DNA of 64,000 nt from Scenedesmus sp. PABB004 (lineage: Eukaryota), in contig CM026547.1 in NCBI GenBank assembly GCA_014905635.1, positions 3,782,001-3,846,000 on the forward strand, given 5' to 3'. Each line of letters starts with the position of its first letter. The first letter of the stretch is position 1. Made by a program: the position numbers and the translations under genes. Under the pieces are notes generated by a model, which was not told the DNA's origin, did no database searches, and saw only the letters and a program-made list of their open reading frames with translations. Below are positions 24,441 to 46,665 of this stretch, in pieces.

Positions 24441-27400
24441 ATGCTGTCGACCAAGGGCTTCTTCGCGCTGTTCAAGCCCGCCGTCGCCAAGTTCAGCGAG
24501 GAGGAGCTGCGGGAGCTGTACCAGACGCTGCTGCGCAACCCCGTCGTGGGGGAGTCCAACCGCGCGCTCGTTGTCGAGACGATCCGGTGCGCTCGCCGCC
24601 GCCGCGGCGCGCGCGCGGCGCAGCAGCGCGCCTCCCCGCCCGCCCCCGCTGTCTGGACCGGCCACAGCCCCGGCAGAGAGACCCCGGCGGCCGCCGCCGC
24701 GAGTCGGGGCGCAGCGCAGCGCGGGCGGCGCGCCGCCAGGCGCTGCCCTCTGCCGCTGCCGCGCGCGCGCCGCCGGGGGGCCCTCGCGTCACCGCCGCGT
24801 CCACCGCACGCACGCGCACAACCCGCGCGCGCACGCCACCCCCACCGCCCGGCCGCAGGCGCATCGCGGAGTACATGATCTGGGCGGACCAGCACGACCC
24901 GCGGCTGTTTGACTTTTTCCTGGAGAACAACATCATGACCTACCTGCACCGCGTGCTGCTGCAGCCCGCCAACCGCGCGGGCGAGGTCGCCAAGCAGGCG
25001 CGCGGCGGCGGCGGCGGCGGGGCGCGCTGGGAGGGAGCAGCGCCGGCGCGCCCGCAGCACTGGACGCCCGCACGCGCACCCCACCCTCCCCCCTCCGCAG
25101 GTGCTGCAGACGCTGAGCATCATCATCCAGAACGTGCGCAGCGAGACGGCGGTCTTCTTCCTCTTTTCTAACAACCACGTCAATAACATCGTTGACCTCG
25201 ACTACGACTTTGACGACGAGGAGGTCCTCGGCTACTACGTGAGCTTCCTCAAGACCATCGCGCTCCGCCTCAACGCCGGCACCGCCCAGTTCTTCATCAA
25301 CGCCGCGCCCACGCGACACGGCGCGCCGCCGCCGCCGCCCGGCGGCGCCGGCGCCGCCGCCGCCGCCGGCTCGTTCCCGCTGTACGCGCGCGCCATCGCG
25401 CTCGCGCACAACCGCGAGGGCATGGTCCGCGCCGCGGTGCGCACGCTGACGCTGCACGTGTACAGCGTGCCGGACGCGGCCATCGCCGACTACGTCACGC
25501 GCCCGCCCGCGGCGGCGCACTTTGCCGAGGTCGCGGCCTACCTCGCGGAACAGGTCATGGTGCGGCTCGGCGCGTGCCGCACGCCCACGCCACGCCTTGC
25601 ACCGCACCGGCCGCGGCGCGCTCGCGCCGCGCCGCGCCTCGCGCCTCGTGCCGCGCCGGGCGCGGCGCGCGCACGCAGCGCGCTCACGCTGTGCCGCGGC
25701 GCAGCTGCTCGACCGGCGGCTCGCGGCCGCCGAGGCGGGCGGCGGCACCGCGCTGGGCTCGCTGGACAGCCAGCTCGCAGAGGTGGAGGACGTGCTGTCG
25801 TACGTCAGCGACCTGCTCAGCCTGGGTGAGCGCCGCGCGGGCGCCTCGCTGCGTGCAGGCAGGGCAGACGGTGTGCTGCGCGGGCGCCGCTCACGCCCGC
25901 CCGCCCGGCCGACCACGGAACGCAGGCGTGCCGCGCATCTCGCAGCTGCTGGCCGACGCGGTGTGGCAGCGCGTGGTGGAGCCGCTGCTCCTGCGCCCCC
26001 TCATGCGGCCGGGCGCGGTGGGCAGCGCCGCCGCGCAGCCGCCCGCGCACCTGCAGCAGCAGTCGCGCGCCGGCGTGCCCGGCGGCCGCGCCGCCCTGCT
26101 GGGGGGCGGGCCCTCCGGCTCGCCGCGCGCCTTCACGCAGCTGGACGGCGGCGCAGGTGGGGCCGAGCCCGGGCCGGGCGCGCCCGGCGCCGCCCGGGGC
26201 CGCGCGCCGCGCCGACCCTCCGCGCGCCGCGCCACGCCCGCAGGCGGCCCGCCCGGCAGCGGCTCCGGCGGGCGGCAGGCGCCGCGCGTGCGCCCGGTGT
26301 GCTCCGTGTTTGTGCTGGAGCGTGTCTTCCAGCTCGTCACGTTCGCGCCGCTGCTGCAGCAGCTGCTGCTGGCGCTCGCGTGCGGCGGCGGCGGCGAGGG
26401 CGGGGCCGGCAGCGCGGGCGTGAGCTGCCGTGCCACGCTGCTGGGCCTGCTGGGCGGCGGCCAGCCCTATCCGGCAGTCATGGCTCTCCGGCTGCTGGTC
26501 GCGCTGCTGCACAACCGCCACATCAGCACGGAGCTGCTGTGCGCGCTGTCGCTGCTCCCGCGGCGGCGCCGGGCGCAGCCGGGCGCGGACGCAGGGGCCG
26601 GTGGCGGCGGCGCGGACCCGGGGCAGCTCGCGCTGCTGGTGCAGGCGGCCCTGGCGCAGTTGCGGGGCAGCGGCGGCGGCGGCGGCGGCGCGGGGCTGCA
26701 GCCCCCTAGCCCTGTCGACCTGCTCACCTTGCTGACGCAGCAATACCTGCCCGGCCAGCTGCTCGGGACGCACCGCAGCGAACAGCAGCAGCAGGCGCCG
26801 GCCAGCGCCGGCGGCGTGGAGGGGCTGGAGGCGTGGCTGGAGCAGCAGGCCGAGACGGCGGCGGCAGCGCCTGGCGTGTCGGCGGCGGTGGCGAGCAGCG
26901 CGTTCGGCGCGTTTGGGCCGCAGCTGCTGGACGCGCTGCTGCGCCTGCTGCAGCTGCCAGAGCTGCCGCCGCAGGGCCTGCGGCTGCTGGGCTGGCTGCT
27001 GCACCAGCTGCTGCCGCCGGCGCCGCCCGCGGCGGACGAGCTGGACGACGCGGCGGACGCGGGCGTGCCGCCGCCGCAGCAGCAGGTGAAGCAGGCGCAA
27101 GGACAGCAGGCGCAGGAGCAGCAGCAGCAGCCGGCGTCGCCGCCCCGGCACCGGCGCGGCGCTAGCAGCTCCAGCATGCTTCCGCACCCGTTGGCCGAGC
27201 CAGTCGGCGAGCTGAGTGACGGCAGCAGCTCGCCCACCAGCGCGGGCGCCGGCGGCGCGAGCAGCAGCAGCCTCAGCCGCGCCGCGAGCGACGACGACTC
27301 GCTGGCCGACTCGTCCGTGGCAGCGCCGCCGGTGTCGACCACGGCGCCGTCACTGCGGTCATTCATGGGTGGGGCCGAGGCGCCCGGCGGGTGCGTGCTC

Positions 27401-29096
27401 AGCGCCGACCAGGCGGCGGCGGTCGCGGCGGCAGTCGCCTCCGCGGCGGCGGCGTTCAGCCACCAGCTGGGCAGCATGTGGTGCGAGGCTGTGTTCCCGC
27501 TGCTCGCCGCGGAGTGGGCGGCGTGCCGGGAGGCGCTGCAGCGCCCCGTGCTGCGCGCCGGCGCCGACGCGCTGCTGTCAGGCACCGCGGCGTGGCCGCT
27601 GCTGCTGGGCCTGCAGGCGCAGGCCGCCGCGGGGGAATCGGGCGGGGGCGCGCCGCCGGCCGGGCTCGAGGCGCTGAGCGTGTCGGGGCGCGCCGCGCTG
27701 GGGTGCTTCCTCGCGGTGCAGCGCGTGGTGGCGCTCACGCAGCTGCGCGAGGTGCGGCGCGGCGCGCCGGCGCCGCGCCCCCGCCCGCCGCGCGCGCGCG
27801 GGACGCCTGCTGGGGGCGGGCGCGCTGACGCGCCCGCGCCGCCGCCGCTGCCGCCGCCGCCGGCGCCACCGCCGCGCAGCTGCTGGCGAGCGGCGCCGTG
27901 CCGGCGGCGCCGCCCGTGGCGACGCTGAGCGAGGCGGAGCTCAAGCAGGTCGACATCCAGGAGGGCTTCCAGGTTGACCTCGCGCCGGGCTCGGCGCTGC
28001 CGTGCGTGGTGTCGTTCGCGCCGGGGCAGGAGCGGCGAGTCTACTTTGCTGGTGCGCGCTCGCCGCCCCGCCGCACGCGCACGTCGCCGCCTCGCGCGCC
28101 GCCGCCGCCGCGCAGCGCCGCCGCGCGGGCCGTCACGCCGCCTGCCGCCGCGCCCGCGCCCGCGCGCCTGCGCAGTCGCGGGGCTGTCGCGCAAGCAGCT
28201 GACGGCGATGCAGGCGGGCGGCGCCGACGCGGCGGAGCAGGCGCCGGGCCTGCTGCACTCGCTGCCCGTGGCGGTGCTGGCGGACCCGAGCCCGAGTCGG
28301 GCGCAGGCGGGCATCGTGCTGTCGGTGGCGCCGCTGCTCGGCGCGCGGCCGTACGCGGACGCGGCCGTGCCCAAGTGGCTGCACGTGCACGTGCGCCCCA
28401 GCGTGCGCGGGCTGACGCGCGTCATCAAGGTGCGCGCCTGGACAAGCAGCACGGTCCGAGCGCCTGCGCGCTGCGCACCCCGCCGCCGGGCTGCTGCACC
28501 GCGCGCGGCGCCCCCAGCGCGCGCCGCCGCATGCGCAGACCGCCGCGGCCAAGAAGGGCGGCCTGCTGGCGGCGATGCGCCAGCTGGCGGACGGGCACTG
28601 GGTGCTGGCGTTCTCAACCGCCGACAAGGCGGCGGGCGCGGTGGCGCTGGTGGAGCAGCACACGGCGCACCTGCGGCGGCTGTATAGCGCCGCGCTGGCG
28701 CCGCTCACGGGGCCGCAGGCGCAAGCAGAGCTCGCCGTGGAGGAGCAGCTCACGGGGGGCGAGCCGCTGCAGGAGCTGTCGGAGGACCAGCAGCAGCAGC
28801 AGCAGCCGCCGCCGCAGCAGCAGCAGCAGCAGCAGCCGCAGCAGCAGCAATTGGCAGAGGGTGAGCTCGTGCAGCAGGGCGTGCAGCAGCAGTTGGTCGA
28901 GCTACAGCTAGGGGCAGAGCAGCCACAGCCAGGGGCACCTGGGGAGCCGTGCGCGACCGACGCGACCGCAGGTGCCACAGCAGCTGCCACGGCAGCTGGT
29001 GAGCGCGCCGCTGCCAGCCGCAGTGCGGAGCCTGCGGAGAGCGCGGATCTGGGCTCACCTGCACCGGCTGGCAAGGGGTCTGAGCACGCGGGCTGA
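24441..29096 (+). CDS. CLEC16A: CLEC16A / TT9 (GFS9) FPL-domain endosomal-vacuolar trafficking protein, multi-exon
   Basis: [88 protein letters not shown]; C-terminal PKWLHVHVRPS and DGHWVLAF. Confidence 0.9.
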
Positions 29097-30708
29097 GCGC
29101 AGGCCCTAAGGGCTCGTCGGTAACCACTCATTACCGGGCGCGAGCGTTGGCCAGCCTCGGGCAGCTGCCACAAACCAGCACCGCGCCCTCAAACCAACTC
29201 CACGTGCAACACCGCCGACCGAGTGCAGGGAAGCTGCCTGTGCGGCAGCCATGCAACGCCTCCCCCCTCAAGAAAGCTGCTTGCCACGTCTCTGCGGCCG
29301 GTCAACAAAGGGCTGACCGCCAAGTCTGCACGAGACACGTTGCGTTCACCACAAGGAATCGAGCCTCGCACTGGGTGCAGTGCGGGCGGTGGGCTGCCCA
29401 CCTCGGACGTGCGTTTGAGATGCACACACGTGCGCCATCAGAACATGTCGGCGACACATCAGAACATGTCGGCAGCGGGCAGGCGGCTGTTGAGCCGCGC
29501 GTTGAGCTGGGGCGACGTGGCCTCAAACACCGGCGCACGGCCGCTGGCAGCGTGCGCGATCGCCGCGCTGGTGTGCAGCGAGGCCTCGTGCGCGTTCTGG
29601 GCGCGCTTCTCGGCGCGCGAGATGAGCATGCGGCTGTTGAGCCGCGCCGCCACCTGGGGCGACGTGGCCTCAAACGCAGGCGCGCGACCGCTGGCCGCGT
29701 GCGCGATGGCCGCGCTGGTGTCCAGCGAGGCCTCGTGCGCGTTCTGGGCGCGCTTCTCGGCGCGCGAGATCAGCATGCGGCGCTCGGCCTCCAGGGAGGG
29801 CTTGGCGTCCTCGAACGCAGCCACGCGGGCGCTGGCCGTGTCGCTGATGCGCTCGTGCGCTGCGTCGTGGGCTGCTTCGTGGGCAAACGCCGCGCGGCTG
29901 GCGCGCTTCTCGGCGCGCGAGAGGAGCATGCGCGGCTCGTTGTCGGTGGCCTCGTGCGCGGGGCCATCGCCCTCCGCGGCGGCGGCGATGCGCGCGTGGT
30001 TGAACGCCGCGGCGTCGGCGGCGGCGCTGATCGCGCTGGGCGTGGCGCGCAGGAGGAGGCGCCGCGCGTCGGCACCTGCGGGGGGACGCAGGGCGGCGGG
30101 CGGCGTGAGTGTGAGAGGCGTGCGAGCGAGGCGTGGAGGCTGACAGAGGCTGGAAGGCAAGCAGCATCAGGCGCTGCCGCGCCCGCTGGCCGCCGGGCAG
30201 CGGCGGCTCACCGGCAGCGACGCAGGCGAGCAGGAGCAGGGCCGCCAGCCGGCACGGGCTGCTGCGTGCCATGTCAGGCGCCGCGGGAGGCAGGCTGCGG
30301 AGCTGGAGAGCGGCGAGCGCTCGAGAACGGCGGTGCGAAAGAGTGGCTTCGGTCCTGAGCAGCGGGCTGTGCGTGAGGCTCGTGAGGCGTGCTGTGGGTG
30401 TCGTGAAGGCTCCGGCGAGTCCGCCTTTATCGCGCCGCACGAGCGCAGGCCCCGCAAAGCCATCATCAAACTCCCGGCCCAGCAAATCCGCTGGCCCGGA
30501 GTGCCGTGCGGCCGCGCGCCCGGGCGGGCATCAAATCCGCCCGACGCGACGTGACCTGGGTCCGGGCGGGCGTCGCCGTGGCGTGGGGTGGCGGCGGCCA
30601 GCCCGGCCGCCGCTGCGCAAGCGCGCGTGCGGCGCGGGCGGGGCTGGCAGGGGCGGGAAGGGCGCTGAAGCTGGCTGGTGTGGCCGATGGCACACGCGCG
30701 ACGTGGGC
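28927..30708 (+). repeat. Segment A of a segmental duplication (inverted copy at ~42443-44254)
   Basis: Near-identical reverse-complement match including non-coding DNA; starts inside the last CLEC16A exon. Confidence 0.93.
29459..30272 (-). CDS. Secreted repeat protein / candidate prepro-peptide, copy 1 (exons 30272-30212, 30075-29459)
   Basis: Signal peptide MARSSPCRLAALLLLACVAAG, GT-AG intron, then RRLL and three R-M-L-[LI]-SRAEKRA units. Differences I compared with copy 2 are synonymous except one K/R. Confidence 0.8.
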
Positions 30709-30781
30709 CGATGCCACACGCGCAGCCGCCAGCGCTGCTGCCAGCGCCGACGCGGGCTCGCCCGTCTGCGGCACACCCGGC

Positions 30782-30892
30782 CACAGGAGTAGCTCTAACG
30801 GATGATGATGAGCGGGGGCGGCTCCAGCACGGGGGGGGGGGGCGGCTCCAGCACGCCCCCGCTCATCATCATCCGTTAGAGCTACTCCTGTG
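30782..30892. repeat. Perfect 39-bp inverted repeat with 33-nt spacer (MITE-like or hairpin RNA)
   Basis: CACAGGAGTAGCTCTAACGGATGATGATGAGCGGGGGCG (30782-30820) is the exact reverse complement of 30854-30892. GGCGGCTCCAGCACG occurs twice (30817, 30841) around a G run. Confidence 0.9.
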
Positions 30893-31099
30893 AGCGTGGA
30901 GAACCACCCGACCACCCGCCGGCCGGACCGATGCAACCAACGCGCTCCGATCAACTGATCAACGAATCAGCAGATGTCCCCTGCGAGCCGACTGCGCTCG
31001 CACACTACAGATTCCCACAACATCATCTGTGCGAAGAGGGGGCCGGAAGCTGGGGCGCGATGTGGCCGTGCCAGGCCAAAGTCCAGAAACCAAGCAAGT

Positions 31100-33082
31100 G
31101 CGGACGGCTGCTGTGTGTGACGCCCCAGGTGCGACCGGCCGTGCGTTTGTGCAAGAAGAAGTAAGGCTGCTCACGCCAGTTGGCCAACCGTTTAGGATGT
31201 GAGACCCAGCATCCCCCTCCATCCAAGCCACGCTGCTGCCAGCGCCGCTTCCGCACCAGCTACAGTTCTTGCTTGAGCACCGGCGCCGGCGAGTCCGCTG
31301 GCGTCGGCGCCGGCGCGGGCGCCGGCGCGGGCGCGGGCTGCGCGTACGCCTCGACCACAGCGCCGGCAAACGCGACCGCGCCCAGTTTAAGGGGGTGCAG
31401 GAGCACCTGCAGCCGCGCAAACTGCTGGCAGCTGAGAACGCCATACAGCTGCGCGCCGGCGATGCCGCCGAGCAGCCCAAACTTGGCGAGCAGCAGCTGC
31501 ACCTCCCGGAGCCGCTCCGCCCGCACCTCCTCCCTGCCCAGGTGCTGGAGCATGCTGCTTGCGAGCAGCGCCTCGCCACCGGCGCCGGCGCCAGCGGCGC
31601 CCGGCGGGGGCAGGCCCACCTCGGTGAAGAGCTGGCAGAGCTTGCTCGTAATGGGCGCGTGGACGCGGCGGAACACCTTGAGCCCGGCCACAATGTCGCG
31701 CACCTGGTCGGGCGACAGCCCCAATGTGCGGCACGCGTGCGCGACGCGCTCGGCCTCCCGTGGCAGGCCGTACATGACCGTGACCACACTGTTGCGGCCG
31801 CACAATATCATCTGCCCGAGCAGGACAATCCACTGCATTGCCAGCTCATGCAGCTGCTCCAGTGGCGGCGAGCTGCCCGTCAACGGGCCCGCCGCGTCCA
31901 GCTGATGCAGCGCCACAGCCGCACGGCGCACGATCTGCGAGGCGCGCGGCGTGGGGGCGCAGGCGAGAGCTCTGCGCAGCACGCGTCGCGCGGCGGCACG
32001 CGGCGCGCCGCGGCGCGCGGCAGGCGCCACTGCTGGCTGCTCAGCGCTCTGCTTCTGTGTGCAGCCTCACCTCATCGCAGTGCTGCGTGAGCCCCTCAAC
32101 CGTCATGGTCAGCGCTTCGGGCGGCGCGGGCTGCGCACGGGGCGGAGCGCCGCGGGCGCCGCTCGGGGTCGACGGCCGCTTGCGCCCGTGTGGCCCCCGC
32201 TGCCTGCTCTGCCACACCTGTGACAGTATGTGCCGCACCAAGCGCAGGGGGTCGTGTGGCGGCGCCATGCGCTCATGTGCCGTTGCTGCCGCCTCGCTCC
32301 CGAGCTCGGACGCGTTGTCGCCGTCGCTGCTGCTGCGTTCCGACGCCGTCGGCTGGCAAGCCGCCCCTGCTCGCGGGCCGCCACTGAGCGAGGCGGCGCG
32401 CAGCTGCTCCAGCAGCAGCAGCTCCTCGCCGTCCGCGCCCAGCTCGGAGGCCGCAAGCAGCAGCGGCCCGGACGCGTCGCCGCTCTCGGCGGCCGCGGCC
32501 AGCTGCTGGCCCTCCAGATGCTGCCTGATCCAGCCCATGGTGTCAACGTACGCCTGCAGGAGGTCATGCTGCGGCAGGGTGCGGCGACGGCGGCGCAGCG
32601 GCGGCGGTCGGCTGCTGCTGCTGCCGCTCCGCCAGGCGTTGCGTGCGGGAGGGCCCGGATCAGCCACTGCCGCTGCGGCAGAGCGCGGCCCGCATAACCG
32701 CCGTCCTCACGGCCCGTGCGACGGGCCCTTCCAGGCAGCCACGGGGCGGCGCGGCCCACCTCAGGCGCGATGGCGTCGCGCTCCTCCGCGAGCCGACGCA
32801 GCTGCGCCTCCCGCTTCTTGATCTGCTTCAGCAGCCGTGCAACGTGGCCGCGATGCACGGCAGAGCGGCTCTTGTTTTTCAGCATCGCTGCTGCCGCAGG
32901 CCGCCGGCCGCCGCTGTCACGCCGGCCGGGCCATGGCGGCGGTGCCTGCGCCCAATCGCGGGCTCCTGGCGGGCGGCTCTGGCACCAGGCAGGCCGGGGC
33001 TGCCGGCCCAGGGGCTGCGGCGGCGGGCTGCGCGCCACGCCTGCGCCCTGCACCCTGACCGCGCGCCTGCCGCCGCTGCCGC
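31100..33082 (+). repeat. Segment B of a segmental duplication (inverted copy at ~44293-46250)
   Basis: Reverse-complement match, high in exons and introns, decaying in the 3' UTR. Confidence 0.92.
31260..32885 (-). CDS. bZIP-like protein with DOG1/TGA-like C-terminal domain, copy 1 (exons 32885-32760, 32568-32071, 31934-31260)
   Basis: Basic region MLKNKSRSAVHR followed by a heptad coiled coil (LLKQIKKREAQLRRLAEERDAIAPE|HDLL); in-phase GT-AG introns. An alternative upstream in-frame ATG lies at 33203. The domain name is an inference. Confidence 0.65.
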
Positions 33083-33297
33083 CCAAGCTGACGCGCGCTG
33101 CTGCTTTGCCCGGGCCACAGCGCTCCTTCGTCTCCAGACCGCGGTCTCCATTGACAGGTTTCTGTACAGCCGCAGCACTTGCGGCCGCGCTGCCTGAGCT
33201 CATCTGCGGCTAGCCCCCCTGCAAAACAACGAGTGCGCCAACCCATCCATGCCTGCTACTTACTCCATCATCATCACTAACCGCGCGCCGCGCGCCC

Positions 33298-36200
33298 TCA
33301 CAGGGCCTTCACGCGCCCCCCGCCGCCCGCCTGCTGCGCCGCCTGCGCGCCCGGCGGCCCGTGGCCGGCGTGCGTGCCGGCGCCGGCGCCGCTGTCGCGC
33401 TCGAGCATGAGCAGCTCCTCGGCAAGGTCAAACATGCACGCGTAGGAGGGGCGCCAGAACTGGAGGTCTGCAAACTCCTCGCGGGCCGGCCCGACGTCCT
33501 CCACCTCCAGCGCCGCCCGCGCCGCCGGCCTGGCTCCGCCGGCGGGCGCGGTGCCGCCCGCCGCCTCGCCGCCGCCGGCCTGCTGCTGCTGCTGCTGTTG
33601 CTGCTGCCGCTGCTGCTGCTGCTGCTGCTGCTGCCGCTGCTGCTGCTGCCACCGCTCGGAGCCCGCGCCTCCCGCGGCCTGCACCGCGCCCGCCGCCGCC
33701 GTCGCCGCGACGATGCCGGCGAGCGCCGCGGCGTCCCACGCGCCGCCCGGCGGCACCGCGCCGCTCTGCTGCGTGCGCAGCGCGCGCGCGCTGCCGCGCA
33801 CCGCCGCGGCGGGCAGGGGCGGGAAGATCTCGTGCACCAGCTCGTTGATGGCCGACAGGCTGGACCAGGTGCTGCTCTGCACCGCGGTGGAGGCCTTCTG
33901 GAGCTGGCCCTTGGGGTTGATCGTGAACGTGCGGCTCAGCGGCACGCCCACCTCCCTGCGCGCGGCGCCGGCGCCGGCGCGGGCACGTCAGCAGCAGGGC
34001 GGCGGCGCAGCGGCGCGGGCACGTCAGCAGGGCGACGGCGCGGGCGGGCGGGCGGCGCGCCTGTACGAGACCTCGTCCGTGTCCCTGTTGCCGAAGCCGG
34101 CGTAAAAGGGGTTCCAGTCGGGCGGGAAGAGCGCGCGGATGTCCTGCAGGCACGCGATCTTGAACTCGTGCGGCCGCCGCACCACGATCTCCCTGTACAG
34201 CGACGGCAGCAGGCCGTGCGGCGAGATGATGACCGGGCCGGACGGCATCTTGTGGCCGTCCTGCACCAGCGTGTGCAGGTACTCGCGCGTGATGTTGGCC
34301 TGCGCGATGGCCCTGCGCGCGCACGCGGCGCGCGGCGGCGCGGCGCGGCGCGGCGCGTCAGGCGCGTGCGCAGCCGTGGCCGCGGCCCGGCGCGGCCGCG
34401 TGCCCGGCGCGCCTGCCGCCCCGCGGCGGCGCGGCGCGGCGGGCGGCTCGCCTGCTGCTGAGGAACATGATCTGGTAGCCGTTGCTGTCAATGTTGTGGA
34501 AGAGCTGCGTGATGCCCGGGTGGCTCCAGTCGACGCCGAGCGTGGGCAGCACGTGGCCGAGCAGGTCGCTGCGCGTGATGGTGCCGTCGACGTCGCTCAC
34601 CACGAGGCGCGTGTTCCAGCGCAGCAGGTAGATGTAGGCGGTCAGGTCGGCGGCGCCGCCGGCGCGGAACGTGATCGTGTTGGCGCCCGGGCGCAGCGGG
34701 AGCAGCGAGAGCTGCTCGCTCGTGGGCGTGAGCGTCTTGCGGATGATGATGATGTGCTTCTTGCGGCTGCCGCGCGGCGGCGACGCGCCGCTGCTCGCAA
34801 AGCTCACGCCGCGGCCGGCGCGCGGCGAGCCGGCCGGCGCGCCGTCCGGCGCGCCCGCGCCGGCAGCGCCGCTGTCGCCGACGCCGCTCTGCGCGGACGT
34901 GCGCTCCAGCGCCGGCGCCTGCGCCGCCTTGCTGCCGCCGCCCGACACGCCCGCGAGGGAGAGCAGGTTTGAGAATGACCCACCCGACGGCACGAGGCCG
35001 CCGCCGGACGCGGTCGCGCTGCCGGCGCTGGCCGTGACGCCCGGCGGCGGGCTCGTCCCCGGCGGCAGCGACTTGCCGCTGCCGGCGGTGTCGCGCCAGC
35101 CCGAGAACGGCCACAGGCGCCAGCTGCTCGAGACCGCCTGCGGAGCGGCGTGGTGGCGGCGGCGGCGTCGGCCGGCGCCGCACCGGCGCAGCGCGGCGCG
35201 CGCCGATGCCCTGTGACCGACGACCGCGCGCTGGCCGCAGCGCGCGTGGCGGGTGCCGCCGCGGGCGCGCCTTCTTGGCGGTGGCGCTGAGCTCCTCCCC
35301 CAGCTTGAGCGGGAACAGCCCGCTCGCGTCCGGCGCTGCCAGCGCGTCCCAGCGCCCACCAAACGCGAGCATGCCCACCACCATCGGCGCCGCCACCTGG
35401 CGGCGCGCGACGCGCGGCCGCGGCGGCGGTGACGGCAGTCGGGTCGGCGGGCGCGCGCGTGACCGCCGCGAGCAGCAGGCGCGCGGGCCCCGCGGGCTGG
35501 CGGGCGCCGCGCGCCGCGCGCGCGCCTGCCACGAGTAGAGGCTGGCGCCGATCTTGACGACCAGGCCAGGGTCGGCCATGAGGGCGAGCCCCTGCTCCGC
35601 CCATTCCGCCGCCCCCAGCCGCCGCGTCTCAAACACCTGCTGCGCCTCCGCGGGCGGCATGCCCGGCCGCAGCAGCCCGCCGCAGAGGCTGAGCTGGAAG
35701 CCGGACAGCCCCAGCGCGAACGGGCCCGCGCCGGCGGCGAGCTCGCCGCCGGGGATGCCCAGGCCGCCGCGCAGCCGCGGCGTGCCGCCGTCGTACGACG
35801 TGCCCAGCGGGCCCCCGAGCTCGCTGTCGCCCAGGCAGCCGGGGTCGGGCGGCGACGCCCCCAGCGGCCCCGGCATCGGCACCGGCGCCGAGCCGCTGCT
35901 GTCCGCCGGCGCGGACGCTGGCTGCGCCGGCTTGCGCGGCGTGCTGGGCTGCAGCTCCGCGGGCGCCGAAGCCGCTGCCAGACTCCCGCCCCCGCCGCCT
36001 GCTGCCGCTGGAGGGGCGCACGCGGGCAGAGAGACGCTGCTCAGCTCGGCCAGCAGCGCGCCCCTGCTGCCCCTGCCGGCCGCAGGCCGCGCACCGGACA
36101 GAGCGGCGGCCACCGCGCCAGGGATGGCGGGTGCGGGCTCCGCCGCACCGTCCAGGATGGCGGTGGCGTCGGCCTCCTCCAGCGCCGGGCCGCACCCGCC

Positions 36201-38234
36201 ACCGCCGCCGCTGCTGCTGCCGCCGCCGCTGCTGCCGCAGCCGCTGCTGCTGTTGCTGCTACTGCTGCCTGCTGCTGGGGACGGTGCTGCCTGCGGCAGC
36301 TGCGGCCCTGGCTGCTCCAGGCGCTGCTGGCCTGACTGCTGCTGCTGCTGCTGCTGCTCCTGCTGCTCCGCCGCCTTGAGGCTGCTCGCCAGCAGCCCGT
36401 CCCGGCTCCGGCTGGGGCTCAGCACGCTGCCGGCGAGCATGGGCGCCGCCTGCGGCTCGCCGCTGCCCTCGCCGTCGGCGCGCGGCGCGGGCCCGCCCAC
36501 CGACGACGAGGAGCTGTCGCTGCCGGCGTCGGCTGCCGTGGAGGCGTCGGCCGCCTCGTAGGCGCTGTACGAGGCAGCCGAGTCGAGCGCCGCGTCCAGC
36601 TCCCGCTGCTGCACCTGGCGCACGCCGCGGCGCCTGCCGCCGCCCGCCGGGGGCGAGCTGACCTCAAAGCCCAGCTGCCGCACCGGCTGCTGCGTGCCCT
36701 TGCCCGCGCCCCTCCCGCTGGGCGGGCGCTCCGCCACTGGCGCGCCGTTGGCGTGTGGCGAGGCGTGCAGTCTCGACGGCGCGCGCGCCTTGGGCGCCTG
36801 CTGCTGCTGCTGCTGCTGCTGCCGTGCGCCCGCCGCCGCCGCCGCCGCCGCCGTGGCCGCCGTGCCAAGGCCCTCTGCCGTGAACGACTCGTCTGACTTG
36901 ACCTTGACTGAGTAGCGCGTGTCCAGTAGCATGTCCTGCAGCGTCGCGCGCGCCGGGTGCTCCGCCGCGCCGTCGCCCGGCGCCGCCAGCACGAGCGGCG
37001 CCCGGTGCTGCCGCCGCCGGCGCGGGCGCGGCGCACCCCCGCCGGCGTCGGCGCCGGTGCCGCCACTGCTGCTGCTGCTGCTGCCCGGCCGGCGCGCCGG
37101 CAGGCCCAGCCGGCCCAGCCGCGCCGCCGCGTCGCCGCTCCCCGGCAGCGAGCCCGGCGCTGCGGCCAGGCCCTCGCGGATCGCCGCCAGCACCTCCTCG
37201 GGCGTGAGCACGGCGGCGTCCGGCGCGCTGCCGCTGCTGCTCTCGCTGTCGCTCTCGCTGCCCGACGCGCCGACCCCGGCGGCGCCCGGCGCTGCGCCCG
37301 GCGCTGCGCCCGGCGCGCCGGCGGCGGCCGCCGCGGCGTGCTGCGACGCCTTGATGCGCTGCACCTGCTCCTGCACCGCGCCCAGGATGGCCTCGTTTGC
37401 GTAGGGTGCGCCCTCGTCGGAGGAGTAGCCGCTCGGCGGCGACATCATGCCTTGCAGGAACTCCTCGTCATCCGCGTCTGGACGCCACGCAACGCGGCGG
37501 CAGACGCGGCGGGCGCGGCGGCGCGCTCGGCGGCGGCCCGGGCCGCCGGCGCTGCACGGTGCCGCGGCGCGGCGGCGGGCTGGGCTCACCGCTGACAATC
37601 TCCATCGTCTCCGCGGCAAAGTACGCCTGACCGTACGCGCCGAGGTGCATGCTGAAGGCCGCCTCCTCGCCTGCGTGCCGCGGCGGCGGCGGCGGCGCAC
37701 AGTCGTGCCCCACGCCCGCGCGTCGTCATTGTCAGCGGCGCGGCGGCGGCGGCGGCGGCGCGCACCGTTGATGAGGATGTGGACGCGCTTGTCCTTGCTG
37801 CGCATGGGCGTGTACTTGCCAAACCGCACTGCGGCGGCGCGGCGCGGCGGGGGCGGCGTGGGCGCGGGCGGGCCCGGCGAGCGGCCGCGCCGCGCGCGGG
37901 CGGGCCGCGCACCGTAGAAAGGCGAGCACTTGAGGCTGCCGTCGGGCTGCTGCACGACCATGATGTCGATCGCGCCCGCCATGTGGGGCGTGAGGCCGTT
38001 CACGGCGCTCAGGATGGCGGTGCCGCCCATGACGACGCCGCTCTGTGCGCAGGGGCGGGCGGGCGCCGGGCCGACAGCAGCGGCGGCGCCGCGGCCGAAG
38101 GCGGGCGGTCGGCGCGGCACGGCGCACGCCACACGGCCTGCCAGCGCTCGGCCGGGCGCGGCGTGAGCGGGCATCCAGCGCCCGGCAGGCCGCACCTTGA
38201 GCGCGCTCGCCGCGCGAGCAGTTTTGCTCGACAT
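33298..38234 (-). CDS. PAH1: Lipin / phosphatidate phosphatase (PAH), multi-exon
   Basis: [45 protein letters not shown] catalytic [40 protein letters not shown]-terminal FWR motif. Confidence 0.95.
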
Positions 38235-38683
38235 CCTGGCCCGCCCGCGCCCGCCTGGGCGGCGTGCCCTGCTAATTAGCGACCAGCCGCCATGCCACGC
38301 GCGCCCCAGGCGCGCTGCGGAGGCCGCTGTGCGGGGCGGGTGCGCTTGGGCGTGGGTGCAGGCGCGCTCCCGTCTCCTCTCCCCAAGCTGCCGTCTCCTC
38401 GATCAGCGCGGTGGGCTGAGGGGGAAGCCGCGGGCAGGCCAGAAAGCCGAGCGCGTGCGTCGGCGGGCCGCTTGAGCCCTCGAGCGCGCCCGCCTACCGC
38501 CGCCGGGCGGCGCCGGATGCACAGCCCAGCCCGCCCGCCCCCGCCCTCCCACGCACACTCCTCCCCTGGCTCTCTCCATCGGGCGCAGGCAGCGCGAACG
38601 CGGCGTCGGCGCGCGCGCAACCGCCGCCGCGACGCTCGAACGCGGCGCCGGCGCGCGTCGATGCCGTAGCAGCAGCCCGCGCC

Positions 38684-41600
38684 ATGGCGACCGACATGCT
38701 GCTGCCGAGCAGCAGCCAGTTCTTCCCGGCCGGCGAGCTGCCGTTCGCGAGGTGCGCGCACGGGCGGCGCGCGCCAACAACGGCGCTGCGCGCCAACCGC
38801 TGCGTGCGGCGCAGGCTGCGCCGCCACCGACCCCCCGGCCCGCTGGTCCGCACGCCACGCGCAGCAGCACCAACGGCGCCGCGGCGCCGCCGGCGCCGGG
38901 GTCGGACTCTGGCGAGGCGAGCGACGACAGCGGCGCCTGGGCCCGGCCGTCCGCGGCGGGCGGCCTGGACGCGGCGCTGCTGCAGCGCCTGGCCGCCCAG
39001 CCGCTGGGCGACGGCGGCAGCGGCGGCGGCGCGCCGCCCCGAGCACTGCGCTGCTGTCGCTGCCGAGCGACAGCGCGCGCGTCAGCCTGGGCGGCGCGAC
39101 CGCGGCGCGGCTGATGATGGCGATGGGCGGCGCGCAGGGGCCGCTGCAGCCCATCCAGGAGGAGCGTCTGGCGGGGCGCCTGTCCTTGCCGGACGCGCGC
39201 GCCCGCGAGCTCCGCGGCGGCGCGCGGCCGCTCGGGGGCGGCGCGTCCGCGCTGGACCTGGGCGGCGGTGGCGGCGCGGACGGGGAGCGCGTCTCGGCTT
39301 CGGCGCCGTCCAGCCCCGACCACGGCAACAAGGCCTGCGCCGCCGCGCACCAGCGCTGCTTGGCCGCGGGCAAGCGCCGCCTGGCCGGCGAGCTGCAGGC
39401 GGACGAGGTGCGTCGGCGGCGGCGCGGCTCGACAGCGGGGCGCAGCGGCCTGCACCTCCGCCGGTGCTGGGCTCACCCGCGCCGCCACGCCGTGCGCTCG
39501 CTCTGCGCCAGGGCGTCCGCAGCAGCTGCCCGCTGCCACACGGCATCGTGGCGGGGGCGCTTGGCGCGCAGCCCGGCAGCCTGAAGGACAAGCGGCCCGG
39601 CAGCGGCAGTGCCATGGAGCAGCTGCTCCAGGTGGGGGGTCCCCGCCAAGCTCATGAGCGGGGCGGGCCGCGCAGCTGCACCGGCGGCGCCCGCGTGGCG
39701 CTCACACCGGTCCTCCTCCTCCGCTGCCGCCGCCGCCGCCGCAGGGCGAGATTGAGCGTCTGGCCAGCTCCAACAGCGACCTGGCGGAGCTGCTGGCCGC
39801 CGCGCGCAGCGGCAGCACCACCAGCCAGCAGCAGCTCGCGGCCGCGCTGGAGCAGCTGGCGGACGCGCAGGACCAAATCGTGGCGCTGCGCGCCCGCCTG
39901 GCAGAGGCGGCCGCGCAGCTGGTGGAGCGGGCAGACCTGGCGGCGGCGCTGCGGGCAGAGCTTGCCTCGTCCGACAAGGCCCGTGCGGGCCTGGCGGAGC
40001 AGCTGGACCGCCTTGCAGACAAGGTGTTTGATGTCGCTGTTGCTGCCGCTGCGCGCACTCTGGCCGCGGCTGCTGGCACGCGCAGCGGCGGCTGCTCACT
40101 CCGTCACGCGCGCCCCGGCCCCGGCCGCAGGTCGGCACGCAGGAGGGCCAGCTGGAGTACGCCCACAAGCAGCTGGACGCGGCGCAGGCAGAGGCGCGCG
40201 CGCAGGGCGAGGCTGCTGCCGCTGCCACGGCCGCAGGCGAGCAGCTGGCCGCGCAGCTCGACGCCGCACGGGAGGAGCTGGCGGCCACGCGCCGCGAGCT
40301 GGATGGAGGTGGGCCGCCGCCCGGCTGCCGCCTCGCTCGCGCAGCAGCTGCTGCGGCGTGTGCGGCGCCTGACCGGCAACGCCTCCCGCCCACAGTCACC
40401 AGCCGCCTGTCGTCCGAGGCCACCGACGCAAAGCGCGCGGGCGACGAGTCGTCTGGCCTGCGCCGCGACCTGGCGCAGCTGCAGGCGGAGCTCAGCCGTG
40501 CGCGTCAGGACGCGTCCGAGGCGCGGGAGCGTGCGCGCCAGGCGCAGGCCGACGGCGAGCGCCGTGTCGCGCAGCTCGAGGGCGAGCGCGCGGAGCTGGC
40601 ACAGCAGTTGGGGGTGAGACCACCGCGCGGCTGCGTGGCGGCCGCGCGCGCCTGGGGCCGGTCGGCGCGCGTCACACACGCGCGCGTGCGCCGCGGCCGC
40701 CCGCGCAGGCGCTGCGGGACCGCGCCGCCGCGCTGCAGGCGCAGCACGACCGCGCTCGCGAGGCGCTCGCGGCGGCGGAGGGCGACAACGCCACGCTGCG
40801 CGGCGACGTCGCTGCGCTGCTGGGCTGCAGGCAGGAGCTCGTGGAGGCGCGCGACCGGCTGCGCCAGCTGCAGCTGGAGAGCGGCAGGCGCGCGGCCGAG
40901 CTGGAGGCGGCTGCCGCCGACCTCTCGCAGCAGCTTGCGGTGAGGCGGCGCCCCCGCGGCCTGTGGCGGCGTTGCCTGCGCGCGCGCGGCCGCTTACGCG
41001 CGCGCGTCCGCGTACGCGCGCCACTCCGCCGCGCAGTTCTCGCGCGCGCAGGGCGACCGCCGTGCGCAGCAGCTGGCGGCGGCAGAGGCCAACTGCGGCG
41101 CGCTGCACGCCGAGCTGGAGGCGGCGCGCCACGCGGCCCAGCAGGCGGCGCACGACGCGGCACTGCAGAAGCAGGGCCTGCTGCACCAGCGCCAGGCGGC
41201 GCTGCACCAGCAGCAGGCGGCCATGCAGCAGCACGTCGACCGCCTGCAGCAGCAGCACCAGCAGCAGGTGCAGCAGCTGCAGGCGCAGCTCGACCGCGCG
41301 CTGGCGGCGGTGTCTGCGTCGGCCGCGCGCGTGCCGGTCCTGGCCGCGATGGCGGGCTGCGGCATAGGCAGCTATGACGGCGGCGGCGTTGACGCCGTCG
41401 GCGCCGCCTCGGCCCACGGCCTGCTGGACCACGGCCCGCTGAGCAGCGGCGTGCTGCGCGGCCAGCGCAAGCTCACGTTTGAGGACGAGGCCCTGCCGTC
41501 CTCGCCGTCGGCGCTGCTGGCGCACGGCCACGCGTCGCCGGGCGCGCACGACGCGCCGGCGCACCACCACGCGACCTACAGCTGGTCGCCGGGCCCGTGC

Positions 41601-42191
41601 GGCGTGCCGGCGCAGCAGCAGGCGGCGCTGGGCAGCCCCGGCTGCGAGGTGTCCGCCTACTGGCCGGCGGCCGGCGCCGGCCAGGGCGGCGACGCGGCGC
41701 CCAGCTCGCCGCCCGCCAGCCCCAGCGGCCGGGCGGCGCAGCTGCCGCAGCAGCCCCGGGCGGCCGCGGGGGCGGGCGGCGGCGACACGCCCTGGTTTGC
41801 TGGCGGCTCCAGCGGCCGCACGCCCGCGAGCAGCAGCAAGTCGGCGGCGCCGGCGTCGCCGGGCGCGTCGTGCGGCGGCCCCGGCCGGCCGCCCAGCGCC
41901 GCGGCGGGCGGCCGCCCGGGGCCCGCCCCGGCCGGGGCGGGGGCGTCGCCGTTCGGGACCGACATGACCGCGGCGCAGCTGGCGGCGCACACGAAGCAGC
42001 TGGAGGATGACCTGCTCGTGCTGTGCCAGGAGAAGGACGAGCTGCTCCGGGAGCACGCCAAGATGCCGTTGGGCTCGGGGCGGACGATCCGGGAGAAGCA
42101 GCGCAAGGCGGCGATCGAGGCGCGGCTGGAGGAGCTGGCCGTCGTCATCAGCAGGACGCGCATGGCGCTCAAGCGCGCGCTCGGCAAGTGA
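38684..42191 (+). CDS. Long coiled-coil protein with MPHOSPH9/enkurin-like C-terminal hairpin, multi-exon
   Basis: Heptad-rich exons; ends LEDDLLVLCQEKDELLREHAKMPLGSGRTIREKQRKAAIEARLEELAVVISRTRMALK. 5' exon structure uncertain. Confidence 0.6.
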
Positions 42192-42911
42192 GGGGCGGCG
42201 GGGCGGCTGCGGGCGCTGCGGGGCGTCGGGTGACGCGTGCCGGCGGTGGTGGTTTTTCATTCGCGTGGTTGACTGCGCTGCGTCTGGCCGCGTGCTGTTG
42301 TGCGCCGTCGCTGGGCTGGTCGGGGGTCCATCCTGGGACGATCTGGCAATCATCGAGCACACAAAGTCGGCGGCGTCGATCCCGCAGCCAGGCCTCAGGC
42401 CCGAGGCCTGGCGCGCGCCGCGGCTTGCGGTGGCTGCCGCGCGCCCACGTGCCCTCGCGCGCGTGTGCCATCGGTCACGCCAGCCAGCTTCAGCGCCCTT
42501 CCCGCCCCTGCCAGCCCCGCCCGCGCCGCACGCGCGCGCTGCCTGCGCAGCGGCGGCCGGGCTGGCCGCCGCCACCCCACGCCACGGCGACGCCCGGCAA
42601 CGCCCGCCCGGACCCAGGTTACGTCGCGTCATTAGGATTTGATGCCCGCCCGGGCGCGCCGGCCGCACGGCACACTCCGGTGCAGCGGATTTGCTGGGCC
42701 GGGAGTGCGGGAGTTTGATGATGGCTTTGCGGGGCCTGCGCTCGTGCGGCGCGATAAAGGCGGACTCGCCGGAGCCTTCACGACACCCACAGCACGCCTC
42801 ACGAGCCTCACGCACAGCCCGCTGCTCAGGACCGAAGCCACTCTTTCGCACCGCCGTTCTCGAGCGCTCGCCGCTCTCCAGCTCCGCAGCCTGCCTCCCG
42901 CGGCGCCTGAC

Positions 42912-43725
42912 ATGGCACGCAGCAGCCCGTGCCGGCTGGCGGCCCTGCTCCTGCTCGCCTGCGTCGCTGCCGGTGAGCCGCCGCTGCCCGGCGGCCAGCG
43001 GGCGCGGCAGCGCCTGATGCTGCTTGCCTTCCAGCCTCTGTCAGCCTCCACGCCTCGCTCGCACGCCTCTCACACTCACGCCGCCCGCCGCCCTGCGTCC
43101 CCCCGCAGGTGCCGACGCGCGGCGCCTCCTCCTGCGCGCCACGCCCAGCGCGATCAGCGCCGCCGCCGACGCCGCGGCGTTCAACCACGCGCGCATCGCC
43201 GCCGCCGCGGAGGGCGATGGCCCCGCGCACGAGGCCACCGACAACGAGCCGCGCATGCTCCTCTCGCGCGCCGAGAAGCGCGCCAGCCGCGCGGCGTTTG
43301 CCCACGAAGCAGCCCACGACGCAGCGCACGAGCGCATCAGCGACACGGCCAGCGCCCGCGTGGCTGCGTTCGAGGACGCCAGGCCCTCCCTGGAGGCCGA
43401 GCGCCGCATGCTGATTTCGCGCGCCGAGAAGCGCGCCCAGAACGCGCACGAGGCCTCGCTGGACACCAGCGCGGCCATCGCGCACGCGGCCAGCGGTCGC
43501 GCGCCTGCGTTTGAGGCCACGTCGCCCCAGGTGGCGGCGCGGCTCAACAGCCGCATGCTGATCTCGCGCGCCGAGAAGCGCGCCCAGAACGCGCACGAGG
43601 CCTCGCTGCACACCAGCGCGGCCATCGCCCACGCGGCCAGCGGTCGCGCGCCGGTGTTTGAGGCCACGTCGCCCCAGCTCAACGCGCGGCTCAACAGCCG
43701 CCTGCCCGCTGCCGACATGTTCTGA
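42912..43725 (+). CDS. Secreted repeat protein / candidate prepro-peptide, copy 2 (exons 42912-42972, 43109-43725)
   Basis: Same structure as copy 1; 147-bp (49-aa) internal tandem repeat starting at 43405 and 43552. Confidence 0.8.
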
Positions 43726-44087
43726 TGTGTCGCCGACATGTTCTGATGGCGCACGTGTGTGCATCTCAAACGCACGTCCGAGGTGGGCAGGCCACCGCCC
43801 GCACTGCACCCAGTGCGAGGCTCGATTCCTTGTGGTGAACGCTACGTGTCTCGTGCAGACTTGGCGGTCAGCCCTTTGTTGACCGGCCGCAGAGATGTGG
43901 CAAGCAGCTTTCTTGAGGGGGAGGCTTTGCATGGCTGCCGCACAGGCAGCTTCCCTGCACTCGGTCGGCGGTGTCGTGCACGTGGAGTTGGTTTGAGGCG
44001 CGGTGCTGGTTTGTGGCAGCTGCCCGAGGCTGGCCAACGCTCGCGCCCGGTAATGAGTGGTTACCGACGAGCCCTGAGGGCCTGCGC

Positions 44088-44254
44088 TCAGCCCGTGTGC
44101 GCAGACCCCTTGCCAGCCGGTGCAGGTGAGCCCAGATCCGCGCTCTCCGCAGGCTCCGCACTGCGGCTGGCAGCGGCGCGCTCACCAGCCGTGGCAGCTG
44201 CTGTGGCACCTGCGGTCGCGTCGGTCGCGCACGGCTCCCCAGCTGCCCCTGGCT
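44088..44254 (-). pseudogene. Captured 3' fragment of the CLEC16A last exon
   Basis: Translates [31 protein letters not shown], matching the C-terminus at 28927-29096, with no upstream exons. Confidence 0.75.
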
Positions 44255-44292
44255 CAACGCAGCAACCCTCGTCAGCCTCGGCGGCAGCGGCA

Positions 44293-46250
44293 GCGGCAGC
44301 GGCGGGCAGGCGCGCGGTCAGCGGTGCAGGGCGCAGGCGTGGCGCGCAGCCCGCCGCCGCAGCCCCTGGGCCGGCAGCCCCGGCCTGCCCGGTGCCAGAG
44401 CCGCCCGCCAGGAGCCCGCGATTGGGCGCAGGCACCGCCGCCATGGCCCGGCCGGCGTGACAGCGGCGGCCGGCGGCCTGCGGCAGCAGCGATGCTGAAA
44501 AACAAGAGCCGCTCTGCCGTGCATCGCGGCCACGCTGCACGGCTGCTGAAGCAGATCAAGAAGCGGGAGGCGCAGCTGCGTCGGCTCGCGGAGGAGCGCG
44601 ACGCCATCGCGCCTGAGGTGGGCCGCGCCGCCCCGTGGCTGCCTGGAAGGGCCCGTCGCACGGGCCGTGAGGACGGCGGTTATGCGGGCCGCGCTCTGCC
44701 GCAGCGGCAGTGGCTGATCCGGGCCCTCCCGCACGCAACGCCTGGCGGAGCGGCAGCAGCAGCAGCCGACCGCCGCCGCTGCGCCGCCGTCGCCGCACCC
44801 TGCCGCAGCATGACCTCCTGCAGGCGTACGTTAACACCATGGGCTGGATCAGGCAGCATCTGGAGGGCCAGCAGCTGGCCGCGGCCGCCGAGAGCGGCGA
44901 CGCGTCCGGGCCGCTGCAGCTTGCGGCCTCAGAGCTGGGCGCGGACGGCGAGGAGCTGCTGCTGCTGGAGCAGCTGCGCGCCGCCTCGCTCAGTTGCGGC
45001 CCGCGAGCAGGGGCGGCTTGCCAGCCGACGGCGCCTGAACACAGCAGCAGCGACGGCGACAACGCGTCCGAGCTCGGGCACGCGGCGGCCGCAGCGGCAT
45101 ATGAGCGCATGGCGCCGCCGCACGACCCCCTGCGCTTGGCGCGGCACATACTGTCACAGGTGCGGCAGAGCAGGCAGCGGGGGCCACACGGGCGCAAGCG
45201 GCCGTCGACCCCGAGCGGCGCCCGCGGCGCTCCGCCCCGTGCGCAGCCCGCGCCGCCCGAAGCGCTGACCATGACGGTTGAGGGGCTCAAGCAGCGCCAC
45301 GATGAGGTGAGGCCGCACACAGACAGAAGCAGAGCGCTGAGCAGCCAGCTGCGGCGCCTGCCGCGCGCCGCCGCGCGTCGCGTGCCGCCGCGCGACCGCG
45401 CGACGCGTGCTGCGCAGAGCTCTCGCCTGCGCCCCCACGCCGCGCGCCTCGCAGATCGTGCGCCGTGCGGCTGTGGCGCTGCATCAGCTGGACGCGGCGG
45501 GCCCGTTGACGGGCAGCTCGCCGCCACTGGAGCAGCTGCATGAGCTGGCAATGCAGTGGATTGTCCTGCTCGGGCAGATGATATTGTGCGGCCGCAACAA
45601 TGTGGTCCTGGCCAGGCATGGTCAGCACGACGCTGAGCGCGTCGCGCACGCGTGCCGCGCCGTGGGGCTGTCGCCCGACCAGGTGCGCGACATTGTGGCC
45701 GGGCTCAAGGTGTTCCGCCGCGTCCACGCGCCCATCACGAGCAAGCTCTGCCAGCTCTTCACCGAGGTGGGCCTGCCCCCGCCGGGCGCCGCCGGCGCTG
45801 GCGCCGGCGCCGGCGGCGAGGCGCTGCTGGCGAGCAGCATGCTCCAGCACCTGGGCAGGGAGGAGGTGCGGGCGGAGCGGCTCCGCGAGGTGCAGCTGCT
45901 GCTCGCCAAGTTTGGGCTGCTCGGCGGCATCGCCGGCGCGCAGCTGTTTGGCGTGCTCAGCTGCCACCAGTTTGCGCGGCTGCAGGTGCTCCTGCACCCC
46001 CACACAGTGAGCGCGGTCGCGTTTGCCGGCGCCGTGGTCGAGGCGTACGCGCAGCCCGCGCCCGCGCCGGTGCTCAAGCAAGAACCATAGCTGGTGCGCC
46101 GGCGCCGCTCACAGTGGCGTGGCGGAGCTGGACGAACGGGATTGCAGATGTCGCTCACATCCTGAACGGCCGGTCAACTGGCGCCTCACTTCTTGCACAA
46201 ACGCGCGCCTCGGCCGTGGCACCTGGCTCACACGCGGCAGCCTTCCGCGT
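44293..46250 (-). repeat. Inverted copy of segment B (31100-33082)
   Basis: Reverse-complement identity across exons, introns and part of the 3' UTR. Confidence 0.92.
44492..46090 (+). CDS. bZIP-like protein with DOG1/TGA-like C-terminal domain, copy 2 (exons 44492-44617, 44809-45306, 45455-46090)
   Basis: Intact frame and conserved splice sites relative to copy 1. Confidence 0.65.
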
Positions 46251-46665
46251 CGGGTTTTATCGCCTGTGACCTCCTTGCGTCGCCACTGTTGGGCTGCTGC
46301 GGCACTGTCTCTCTCTCTCTCTGTCACGGCAGCGGCATTGGGTGCCGCTGGTCCCACTTTTTGGGGGGGCGTGCATCATCTGTTGCTGCATCGGCCAAGC
46401 TGGGTTGAGCGCTGGGCAGCTGTGCAACTGGGATCGCCGACGGCTGCGCCGACGCGTCCTCGCGCGTGTGAGCGCTGCGCCGCCTGTCGGCGCCTGGCAG
46501 CAGCGGCGCCTGCTGCGCAAGGCTGGCGCACACGCGCCTGTGCCCGAGGTAATCTCTCCCGTTACCGCCGCGGCCGCGGCAAACCCTGCGCAACACATCC
46601 TGCCTGGCGCCGCGGCGACAACTGCAGCTGCAGCGCCGCCGCGGCGCGCGCGTCGCGCTGCGCGC

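Follow-up and report, generated by a model that had tools for sequence, protein, structure and literature searches.

The window analysed here, a stretch of 64,000 nucleotides (nt) of the green alga Scenedesmus sp. PABB004 (contig C1:3782001-3846000 of a 40-Mb, 80-contig assembly), carries two intact genes, here called A and B, in a genuine inverted duplication with swapped order. The two genes lie in blocks a and b, and the whole layout is X a gap b M -a -b Y. X ends with the last exon of a gene of the FPL/CLEC16A family, M is a middle segment with a lipin gene and a gene for a coiled-coil protein, and Y begins with the 3' side of a DEAD-box helicase gene. A single inversion with staggered breaks at both ends (the isochromatid/chromatid model, to which dupINVdup or two-switch replication are equivalent) is, with somewhat better than even confidence, the history that we favour.

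Self-BLAST aligned 28927-30708 with the reverse complement of 44254-42451 (block a; 1749 of 1810 positions identical, 96.6 %) and 31100-33082 with that of 46248-44293 (block b; 1838 of 2014, 91 %). This bears out the order-swapped inverted duplication described in a first-pass annotation, made from the letters only, together with its argument that a plain inverted duplication is unable to yield an order in which the right copy, on the minus strand, has B and then A. Both genes had been said to be kept intact, and all four copies indeed are open frames with GT..AG introns. A 38-nt linker at 44255-44292, which the annotation had set apart from B, turned out to be the diverged continuation of B (33083-33108) with a short GCC/GCT expansion: the alignment score was reached by 1 of 200 shuffles, and BLAST joins 33040-33108 to 44337-44255 (E 4.8e-10), by which a foreign linker is ruled out. 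Since the linker aligns to the continuation of B, block b extends as far as 33108, and no more than one extra base separates it from the start of A. At this direct joint, the end of b and the bases just past it match the start of a (28928-28938) at 9 of 11 positions, a score that random pairs reach in 1.7-4.3 % of about 20000 draws. Target-site duplications at the ends of the right copy did not exceed chance (31 of 200 shuffles), and homology of A extending into the gap or past 42450 was not significant (28/150 and 849/4508). The joints are devoid of dispersed repeats and transposons, all matches being to the sequence itself, the partner copy or short low-complexity stretches, in a search that skips very common words. 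As the annotation had remarked, no transposase is visible; neither a transposase nor a reverse transcriptase family was found by Pfam in 13 + 36 frames of the window.

Mis-assembly is unlikely. The copies differ at 119 substitutions and 24 indels, and contigs of a close relative, present in three freshwater metagenome runs from two studies (X1 and X2 from one study; X3 maybe close to the source strain), could be compared to 33110-50000, with 31 letters needed for bridging. Record 7 of X1 (767 nt) covers 45762-46512 and bridges 46248|46249 with 487 and 264 nt. The fit of record 5 of X1 ends exactly at 44254, with 104 letters unaligned and a left-type 3-nt indel, as expected of the left copy. 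The joints 44254|44255 and 42450|42451 are crossed by only 14 nt (record 12 of X2) and 28 nt (record 20 of X3), which is below the bridging rule, and a long identical run in the A copies, described below, might partly stem from polishing. Set against the bridged joint and the many differences between the copies, these points leave an assembly artefact scarcely credible.

In the favoured inversion, the ancestral order would have been CLEC16A(+), A(-), coiled-coil(-), lipin(+), B(+), helicase(-). The breaks, staggered by about 1.8 kb at A and by about 2.0 kb at B, would have been filled in or copied from the sister chromatid, and the 9.3-kb middle would, we infer, have been rejoined backwards, each end then having both A and B, mirror-wise. 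The new joints would be the gap (30708/31100), with a fold-back as its scar, and 44254|44255, with the microhomology. Gene conversion between the two copies, close together and inverted, would later have made their divergence patchy. In the sequence, the inverted duplicates flank a single-copy middle, and each end has the DNA of both breakpoint regions, in the order a b ... -a -b. Inverted orientation is required by a staggered inversion, and a short range is natural for it. A check of signed gene order revealed three one-step histories that reproduce the arrangement, namely the staggered inversion with two new joints and a circle derived from either the left or the right locus with three each.

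Inversions of this type are known from other organisms; here and below, published work is cited from those parts of the papers that were available. In Drosophila, 17 of 29 inversions carry inverted duplications, six of which have both breakpoint regions at each end, with sizes from 46 bp to 1.9 kb and 6.3 kb in one case (Ranz 2007, PMC1885836), and the human dupINVdup class was described by Collins et al. (2017, PMC5338099). The present locus shares with these inversions the non-repetitive DNA of both breakpoints at each end in inverted orientation, the kilobase size and the transposon-free joints (PMC1885836, PMC5338099). It differs in that the middle is only 9.3 kb, the host is a green alga and the flip is putative. 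Moreover, the Drosophila duplicates are mostly decayed (PMC1885836), whereas here whole genes with promoters and open frames were duplicated.

The first-pass annotation had interpreted the locus as the product of a DNA circle. A 4.2-kb circle (28927-33108), closed by microhomology and opened in the gap, would have been reinserted in inverted orientation 9.3 kb away, with the left locus as the untouched donor. A circle does reproduce the order, although it is neither the sole one-step model nor the most economical one, and we regard it as possible but rather improbable. Circle-mediated duplication has been described for the vasa gene of tilapia (PMC3245284) and in humans (PMC7450558, PMC7188851), with yeast and cattle cases cited therein, and look-alikes from tandem duplication plus deletion were excluded in PMC7188851. 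The swapped block order is the published signature of such events (PMC7188851, PMC7450558, PMC3245284), and the locus also shares the clean closing joint with short microhomology (9/11), the retained introns and a gap that, as in tilapia, is found in the donor only. The swapped order and the donor ends joined with microhomology are present, while a distant acceptor, a feature that is not specific to circles, is absent at 9.3 kb. The copy would be only 4.2 kb in size and would have landed 9 kb from its donor in a 40-Mb genome, in an orientation that was inverted by chance, whereas in the human cases donor and copy are separated by 0.09-58 Mb or are on different chromosomes, and the joints have lost or gained 1-27 bp (PMC7450558). 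At the supposed opening point, the ends of the copy are separated in the donor by the 391-bp gap with its fold-back. The gap minus the hairpin (278 bp) weakly matches the right flank at 46249-46530 (32/1294; proximal 72 nt, 26/4508), so that the opening may have been nearly lossless and the gap diverged instead of lost.

The fold-back is an unusual structure. None of 200 shuffles folded as well (z -11), and a 17-bp direct repeat around a G run spans its spacer, as a slipped repeat of the arm end. Only two perfect hairpins with arms of at least 30 bp were found in 722 kb scanned, one in the gap and another with 39-bp arms at C1:3669847-3669945; the chance of such a hairpin falling in 391 bp is about 0.1 %. 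It may be read as a templated end-joining scar, which would suit a new joint, and it counts for the inversion because only in that model is the gap a new joint; an untouched circle donor gives no reason for a scar there. Alternatively, the fold-back may be a cruciform that opened a circle. In this sharper version of the circle, its extrusion sets the opening point, and resection removes the gap or the gap diverges later. With its short length and perfect terminal inverted arms, the fold-back resembles a miniature inverted-repeat transposable element (MITE) or another element with terminal inverted repeats. Such an element was rejected, as the fold-back is single copy and has a spacer derived from its own arm end, and no target-site duplication was seen in the flanks read. 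Its exact matches in the assembly are its own two arms only, with 6 three-mismatch hits against 36 for a reversed control. It lies downstream of gene B on the strand of B and could be transcribed as a 3' hairpin or a small-RNA precursor; no Rfam match was found within 28500-46800.

The starting point of A within the last CLEC16A exon, from which the annotation concluded that the left copy is ancestral, is indeed where block a begins. The A-side joint is probably ancestral, yet the argument is weaker than claimed. The tails of CLEC16A orthologues are not conserved. The 55 codons shared by both copies have an excess of G in the first codon position (1 of 942 non-coding windows reaches this bias), while by codon usage they are not coding-like (725 of 942 non-coding windows score as high), in a rough test in which one of eight training pieces was out of frame and some contained an intron. 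The exon cannot separate a circle from an inversion either, because both keep the CLEC16A joint and the joint of the B promoter with lipin ancestral. Under the inversion, neither locus is the ancestral copy, A being native on the left and B on the right. The reverse history, in which a circle from the right locus, where B directly adjoins A, went into the CLEC16A tail, also reproduces the order and would agree with the unconserved tails and the codon usage. It must account for 391 bp of unique sequence as filler where the circle closed and is opposed by the in-frame G bias and by the 5' flank of a B paralogue (see below), and we consider it highly improbable. The orphan CLEC16A tail of the right copy (44085-44254) has kept frame and stop and lies between A' and the promoter of B'. 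By eye, the gene preceding CLEC16A (23402-24097; CLEC16A itself at 24366-29096) is like the Nup85-family part of the fused Hariotina gene model P0004, and the adjacency of the two genes may, judging by this likeness, be conserved.

An independent view of the ancestral surroundings of B might come from B0, an intact paralogue without A. Its 5' flank leans to the left locus, from 33109 onward (3 of 500 shuffles; 276 of 5446 genomic windows reach the score, compared with 1749 of 5446 for the right locus). With 100, 150 and 200 nt of the 3' flank, 1009/5104, 658/3346 and 141/2532 windows score as high as the right locus, and 4891/5104, 2838/3346 and 1546/2532 as high as the gap; the 3' flank thus leans to the right flank and not to the gap, contrary to what a circle from the left donor would give. 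A split lean, 5' to the left and 3' to the right, is what the inversion predicts.

Several observations weigh against a staggered inversion, among them the modest strength of the B0 comparison itself, which suggests a lean and not a result, both tests reaching only p ~0.05. Continuity at 46248|46249 by the B0 flank has a p of only ~0.055, and an earlier anchoring of B0 gave no 3' signal. The weak likeness of the gap to the right flank agrees just as well with a circle opened near 30710 and weakens the 3' test. The fold-back could predate the duplication or be younger. Three non-adjacent direct pairs about 8 kb apart in 652 kb of the contig show that local copying without inversion occurs. Gene order in Chromochloris zofingiensis is of little help to the inversion. 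The coiled-coil gene clusters with Cz05g23050 and lipin is Cz05g23060 (PMC8126118); the two are neighbours there as well, and their adjacency is therefore old. The flanks of the pair differ from those in the window, and none of the outgroup order compared, that of Chromochloris, shows M flipped. CLEC16A (22200), golgin (22160), HDR (23010), the organellar polymerase (24060) and the helicase (24070) lie on one chromosome with the pair, in scrambled order, the markers having been matched by family name and not by sequence (PMC11258321, supplement 3). With seven markers, three reversals are needed from the present order versus four from the flipped one, which favours the orientation of M today, as in a circle; nine markers tie (5 vs 5), and with 13 markers 4 of 12 adjacencies are kept either way. 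Synteny with relatives, a check proposed in the annotation, hence upholds the age of the coiled-coil/lipin adjacency and lends the flip of M no outgroup support, the Chromochloris order being too shuffled. A synteny scan of metagenomes yielded a single contig of 2.2 kb, which breaks off 330 bp beyond the CLEC16A stop. Scans of viral and prokaryote sequences were empty, cluster look-ups yielded no species besides Chromochloris with locus tags for two markers, and the supplements of PMC6913025 held no synteny match.

The divergence of the copies bears on a third history, in which separate local events of template switching or repair-associated copying duplicated A and B, or in which nested inversions or excision through the gap rearranged an earlier tandem duplication. 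Total divergence differs between block a (26 substitutions in 1774 bp) and block b (93 in 2009; Fisher p 1e-8), at least three close B paralogues without A are present on the same contig, inverted copies of the family occur on contig C34, and local duplications are common in both orientations, all of which would suit separate events. However, synonymous divergence is alike (7/176 in A and about 20/310 in B; Fisher p 0.31), and one event is allowed because A and B do not differ in this respect. The excess in B is also patchy, with 30 of 147 positions differing between the copies in the B 3' region. The A copies share an identical run of 667 bp at 29802-30469 (0 of 20000 random placements), within which record 4 of X1 has 20 substitutions and 12 gap letters in 438 nt, against 3/262 and 1/261 in the lipin contigs; this contrast points to conversion rather than to unequal ages. 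Record 6 of X1 and record 13 of X2 are right-type at 45608-45634 and left-type 8 and 25 bases away. The patchiness is likely due to conversion between the copies, perhaps together with collapse in the assembly of the metagenomes or with polishing of the reference. B0 as the donor of a conversion of B' was rejected, as no tract was found and 45 left-derived and 42 right-derived sites are interleaved. Given that separate events also require reciprocal landings or reuse of breakpoints, we hold them to be unlikely.

Table. Features of the duplicated locus and related sequences. Positions without a contig or locus name are those of the window
Feature	Position	Strand	Details or basis
Last exon of FPL/CLEC16A-family gene	28539..29096	+	Final 55 codons and stop within block a; Pfam FPL in upstream exon, orthologues, frame
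Block a, left copy	28927..30708	+	CLEC16A tail, 3' spacer, gene A, A promoter; self-BLAST
Gene A	29459..30272	-	2 exons (30272-30212, 30075-29459), 225 amino acids, no homologue found
Gap	30709..31099		391 bp, single-copy in assembly
Fold-back in gap	30782..30892		111 bp; perfect 39-bp arms, 33-bp spacer
Block b, left copy	31100..33108	+	B 3' region, gene B, B promoter; self-BLAST and extension alignment
Gene B	31260..32885	-	4 exons, 403 amino acids; basic/coiled N-terminus, algal C-terminal domain
Microhomology at B|A joint	33108..33118	+	9 of 11 with 28928-28938; random-pair null
Middle segment M	33109..42450		9342 bp; lipin (minus, stop 33298), coiled-coil gene (plus, stop 42191)
Block a, right copy	42451..44254	-	Gene A'; orphan CLEC16A tail at end
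Gene A'	42912..43725	+	Exons 42912-42972, 43109-43725; 224/225 amino acids identical to A
Block b, right copy	44255..46248	-	Gene B'; includes the so-called linker
Gene B'	44492-46090	+	4 exons, 390 amino acids, 92 % identical to B
Right outer flank	46249..46665		From B' to stop (46666) of DEAD-box helicase; weakly similar to gap and B0 3' flank
Distant B-family member	169-567	+	
B0	L011:5001-6645		Intact, 411 amino acids, 5 kb before window
B3/B4	L013:4100-8370		Tandem pair, 94 % alike, 110 kb beyond window
Three distant B-family copies	C34:167025-169360, 185477-187850, 201725-203714		Alternating orientation within 37 kb, 76-86 %
Inverted pair, SecY	C1:4072871-4073517 and 4081773-4082411		650 bp, 91 %; SecY promoter and first two exon pieces
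Inverted pair, two copies	C1:3857051-3861970		97 %; around two PHD/GNAT-like genes
Inverted pair, two copies	C1:3955158-3959944		90 %; around PI4 kinase
Inverted pair, two copies	C1:3969885-3973553		98 %; around PsaD
Direct duplicates	C1:3577817/3585995, 3683675/3692125, 3706437/3714846		About 8 kb apart; 92 %, 99.5 %, 89 %
Tandem gene cluster	C1:3755835-3765841		

The window has a G+C content of 78 % and spliceosomal introns. Its top protein matches are to Sphaeropleales green algae, the lipin exon being 93 % identical to Tetradesmus and the CLEC16A-family gene best matched in Scenedesmus, Hariotina and Raphidocelis. The helicase next to the right copy we take, from its motifs, to be DDX47/RRP3.

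A genome-wide search for further copies of A and B, which had been named as a check, gave only two copies of A in the 40-Mb assembly, while B has other paralogues, all of them free of A. The protein encoded by A has a hydrophobic N-terminus and two 49-residue repeats, encoded by two 147-bp repeats, and five coding differences between A and A' at 29537-29561 mostly copy the neighbouring repeat unit. Homologues were found neither in protein searches (at 112-357 residues) nor in Pfam, the Atlas or viral contigs, such blanks being no proof of novelty. With only two copies and these blank searches, the idea that A is a mobile or viral gene was dropped. The protein resembles a secreted pro-peptide, with a hydrophobic leader followed by RRLL and by three R-M-L-(L/I)..EKR motifs that bound the repeated units; by analogy, it would presumably be processed by subtilase- or kexin-type enzymes.

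The B family has 16 matches in the assembly. Pfam names no family for B, and in the Atlas it is closest to chlorophyte clusters without a name (0.86-0.88), followed by a DOG1-bearing cluster (0.79), a weak lead that its C-terminal domain may be DOG1-like. B0, B3/B4 and the distant member in the window indicate that the family has spread locally on contig C1.

Other local duplications are present in the 652 kb of the contig. Ordinary genes, namely PHD/GNAT-like genes, PI4 kinase, PsaD, and SecY with PfkB, occupy the 2.0-8.3 kb between the arms of four further two-copy inverted pairs (650-834 bp, 90-98 %), and no transposase was present among 58 frames scanned. By their look, these pairs resemble one-sided versions of the same event, for which inversion would be a candidate cause. 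The second copy of the SecY pair ends exactly at the ATG of the PfkB kinase, in frame, as if a plastid targeting peptide had been borrowed. By eye, the pair around the PHD/GNAT-like genes holds an apparent tRNA-Cys gene. The direct pair with 99.5 % identity flanks UFD1/UBX and SAND-domain frames and had no match to a retroelement family.

Among green algae, Chlamydomonas reinhardtii offers a comparison. In one strain, 70.6 % of the inversions and translocations were tied to active elements; some inversions and duplications are transposon-free, as here, and consistent with end joining (PMC9977147). Its non-element inversions had short deletions, unlike the present case, and in the part of that paper available paired inverted duplications are not described. 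The available part of PMC12722694 never mentions algae, and a literature search over titles and the starts of abstracts, in which few subscription papers were covered, gave no algal report of either a circle-mediated duplication or a staggered inversion.

In conclusion, the locus belongs to an already known kind of rearrangement and is more probably a staggered inversion than a circle. A swapped-order inverted duplicate near its source does not prove that a DNA circle was involved, since a staggered inversion would leave an identical sequence, and scans for circle-mediated duplications need a control for staggered inversions. If the one-step reading is true, the locus is a compact and testable green-algal example of a single event that duplicated two genes and left both intact. 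Should the neighbouring inverted pairs have arisen by its mechanism, a genome-wide process worth measuring would be at work. With five inverted pairs in 652 kb, it may tentatively be proposed, as a doubtful possibility, that this very GC-rich alga routinely makes micro-inversions of 2-10 kb in which 0.6-2 kb are copied at the ends. Such micro-inversions would offer a transposon-free route to the duplication of whole genes (A, B, tRNA-Cys) and to swaps of promoters and targeting peptides, and could drive both the local spread of the B family and the scrambling of gene order relative to Chromochloris.

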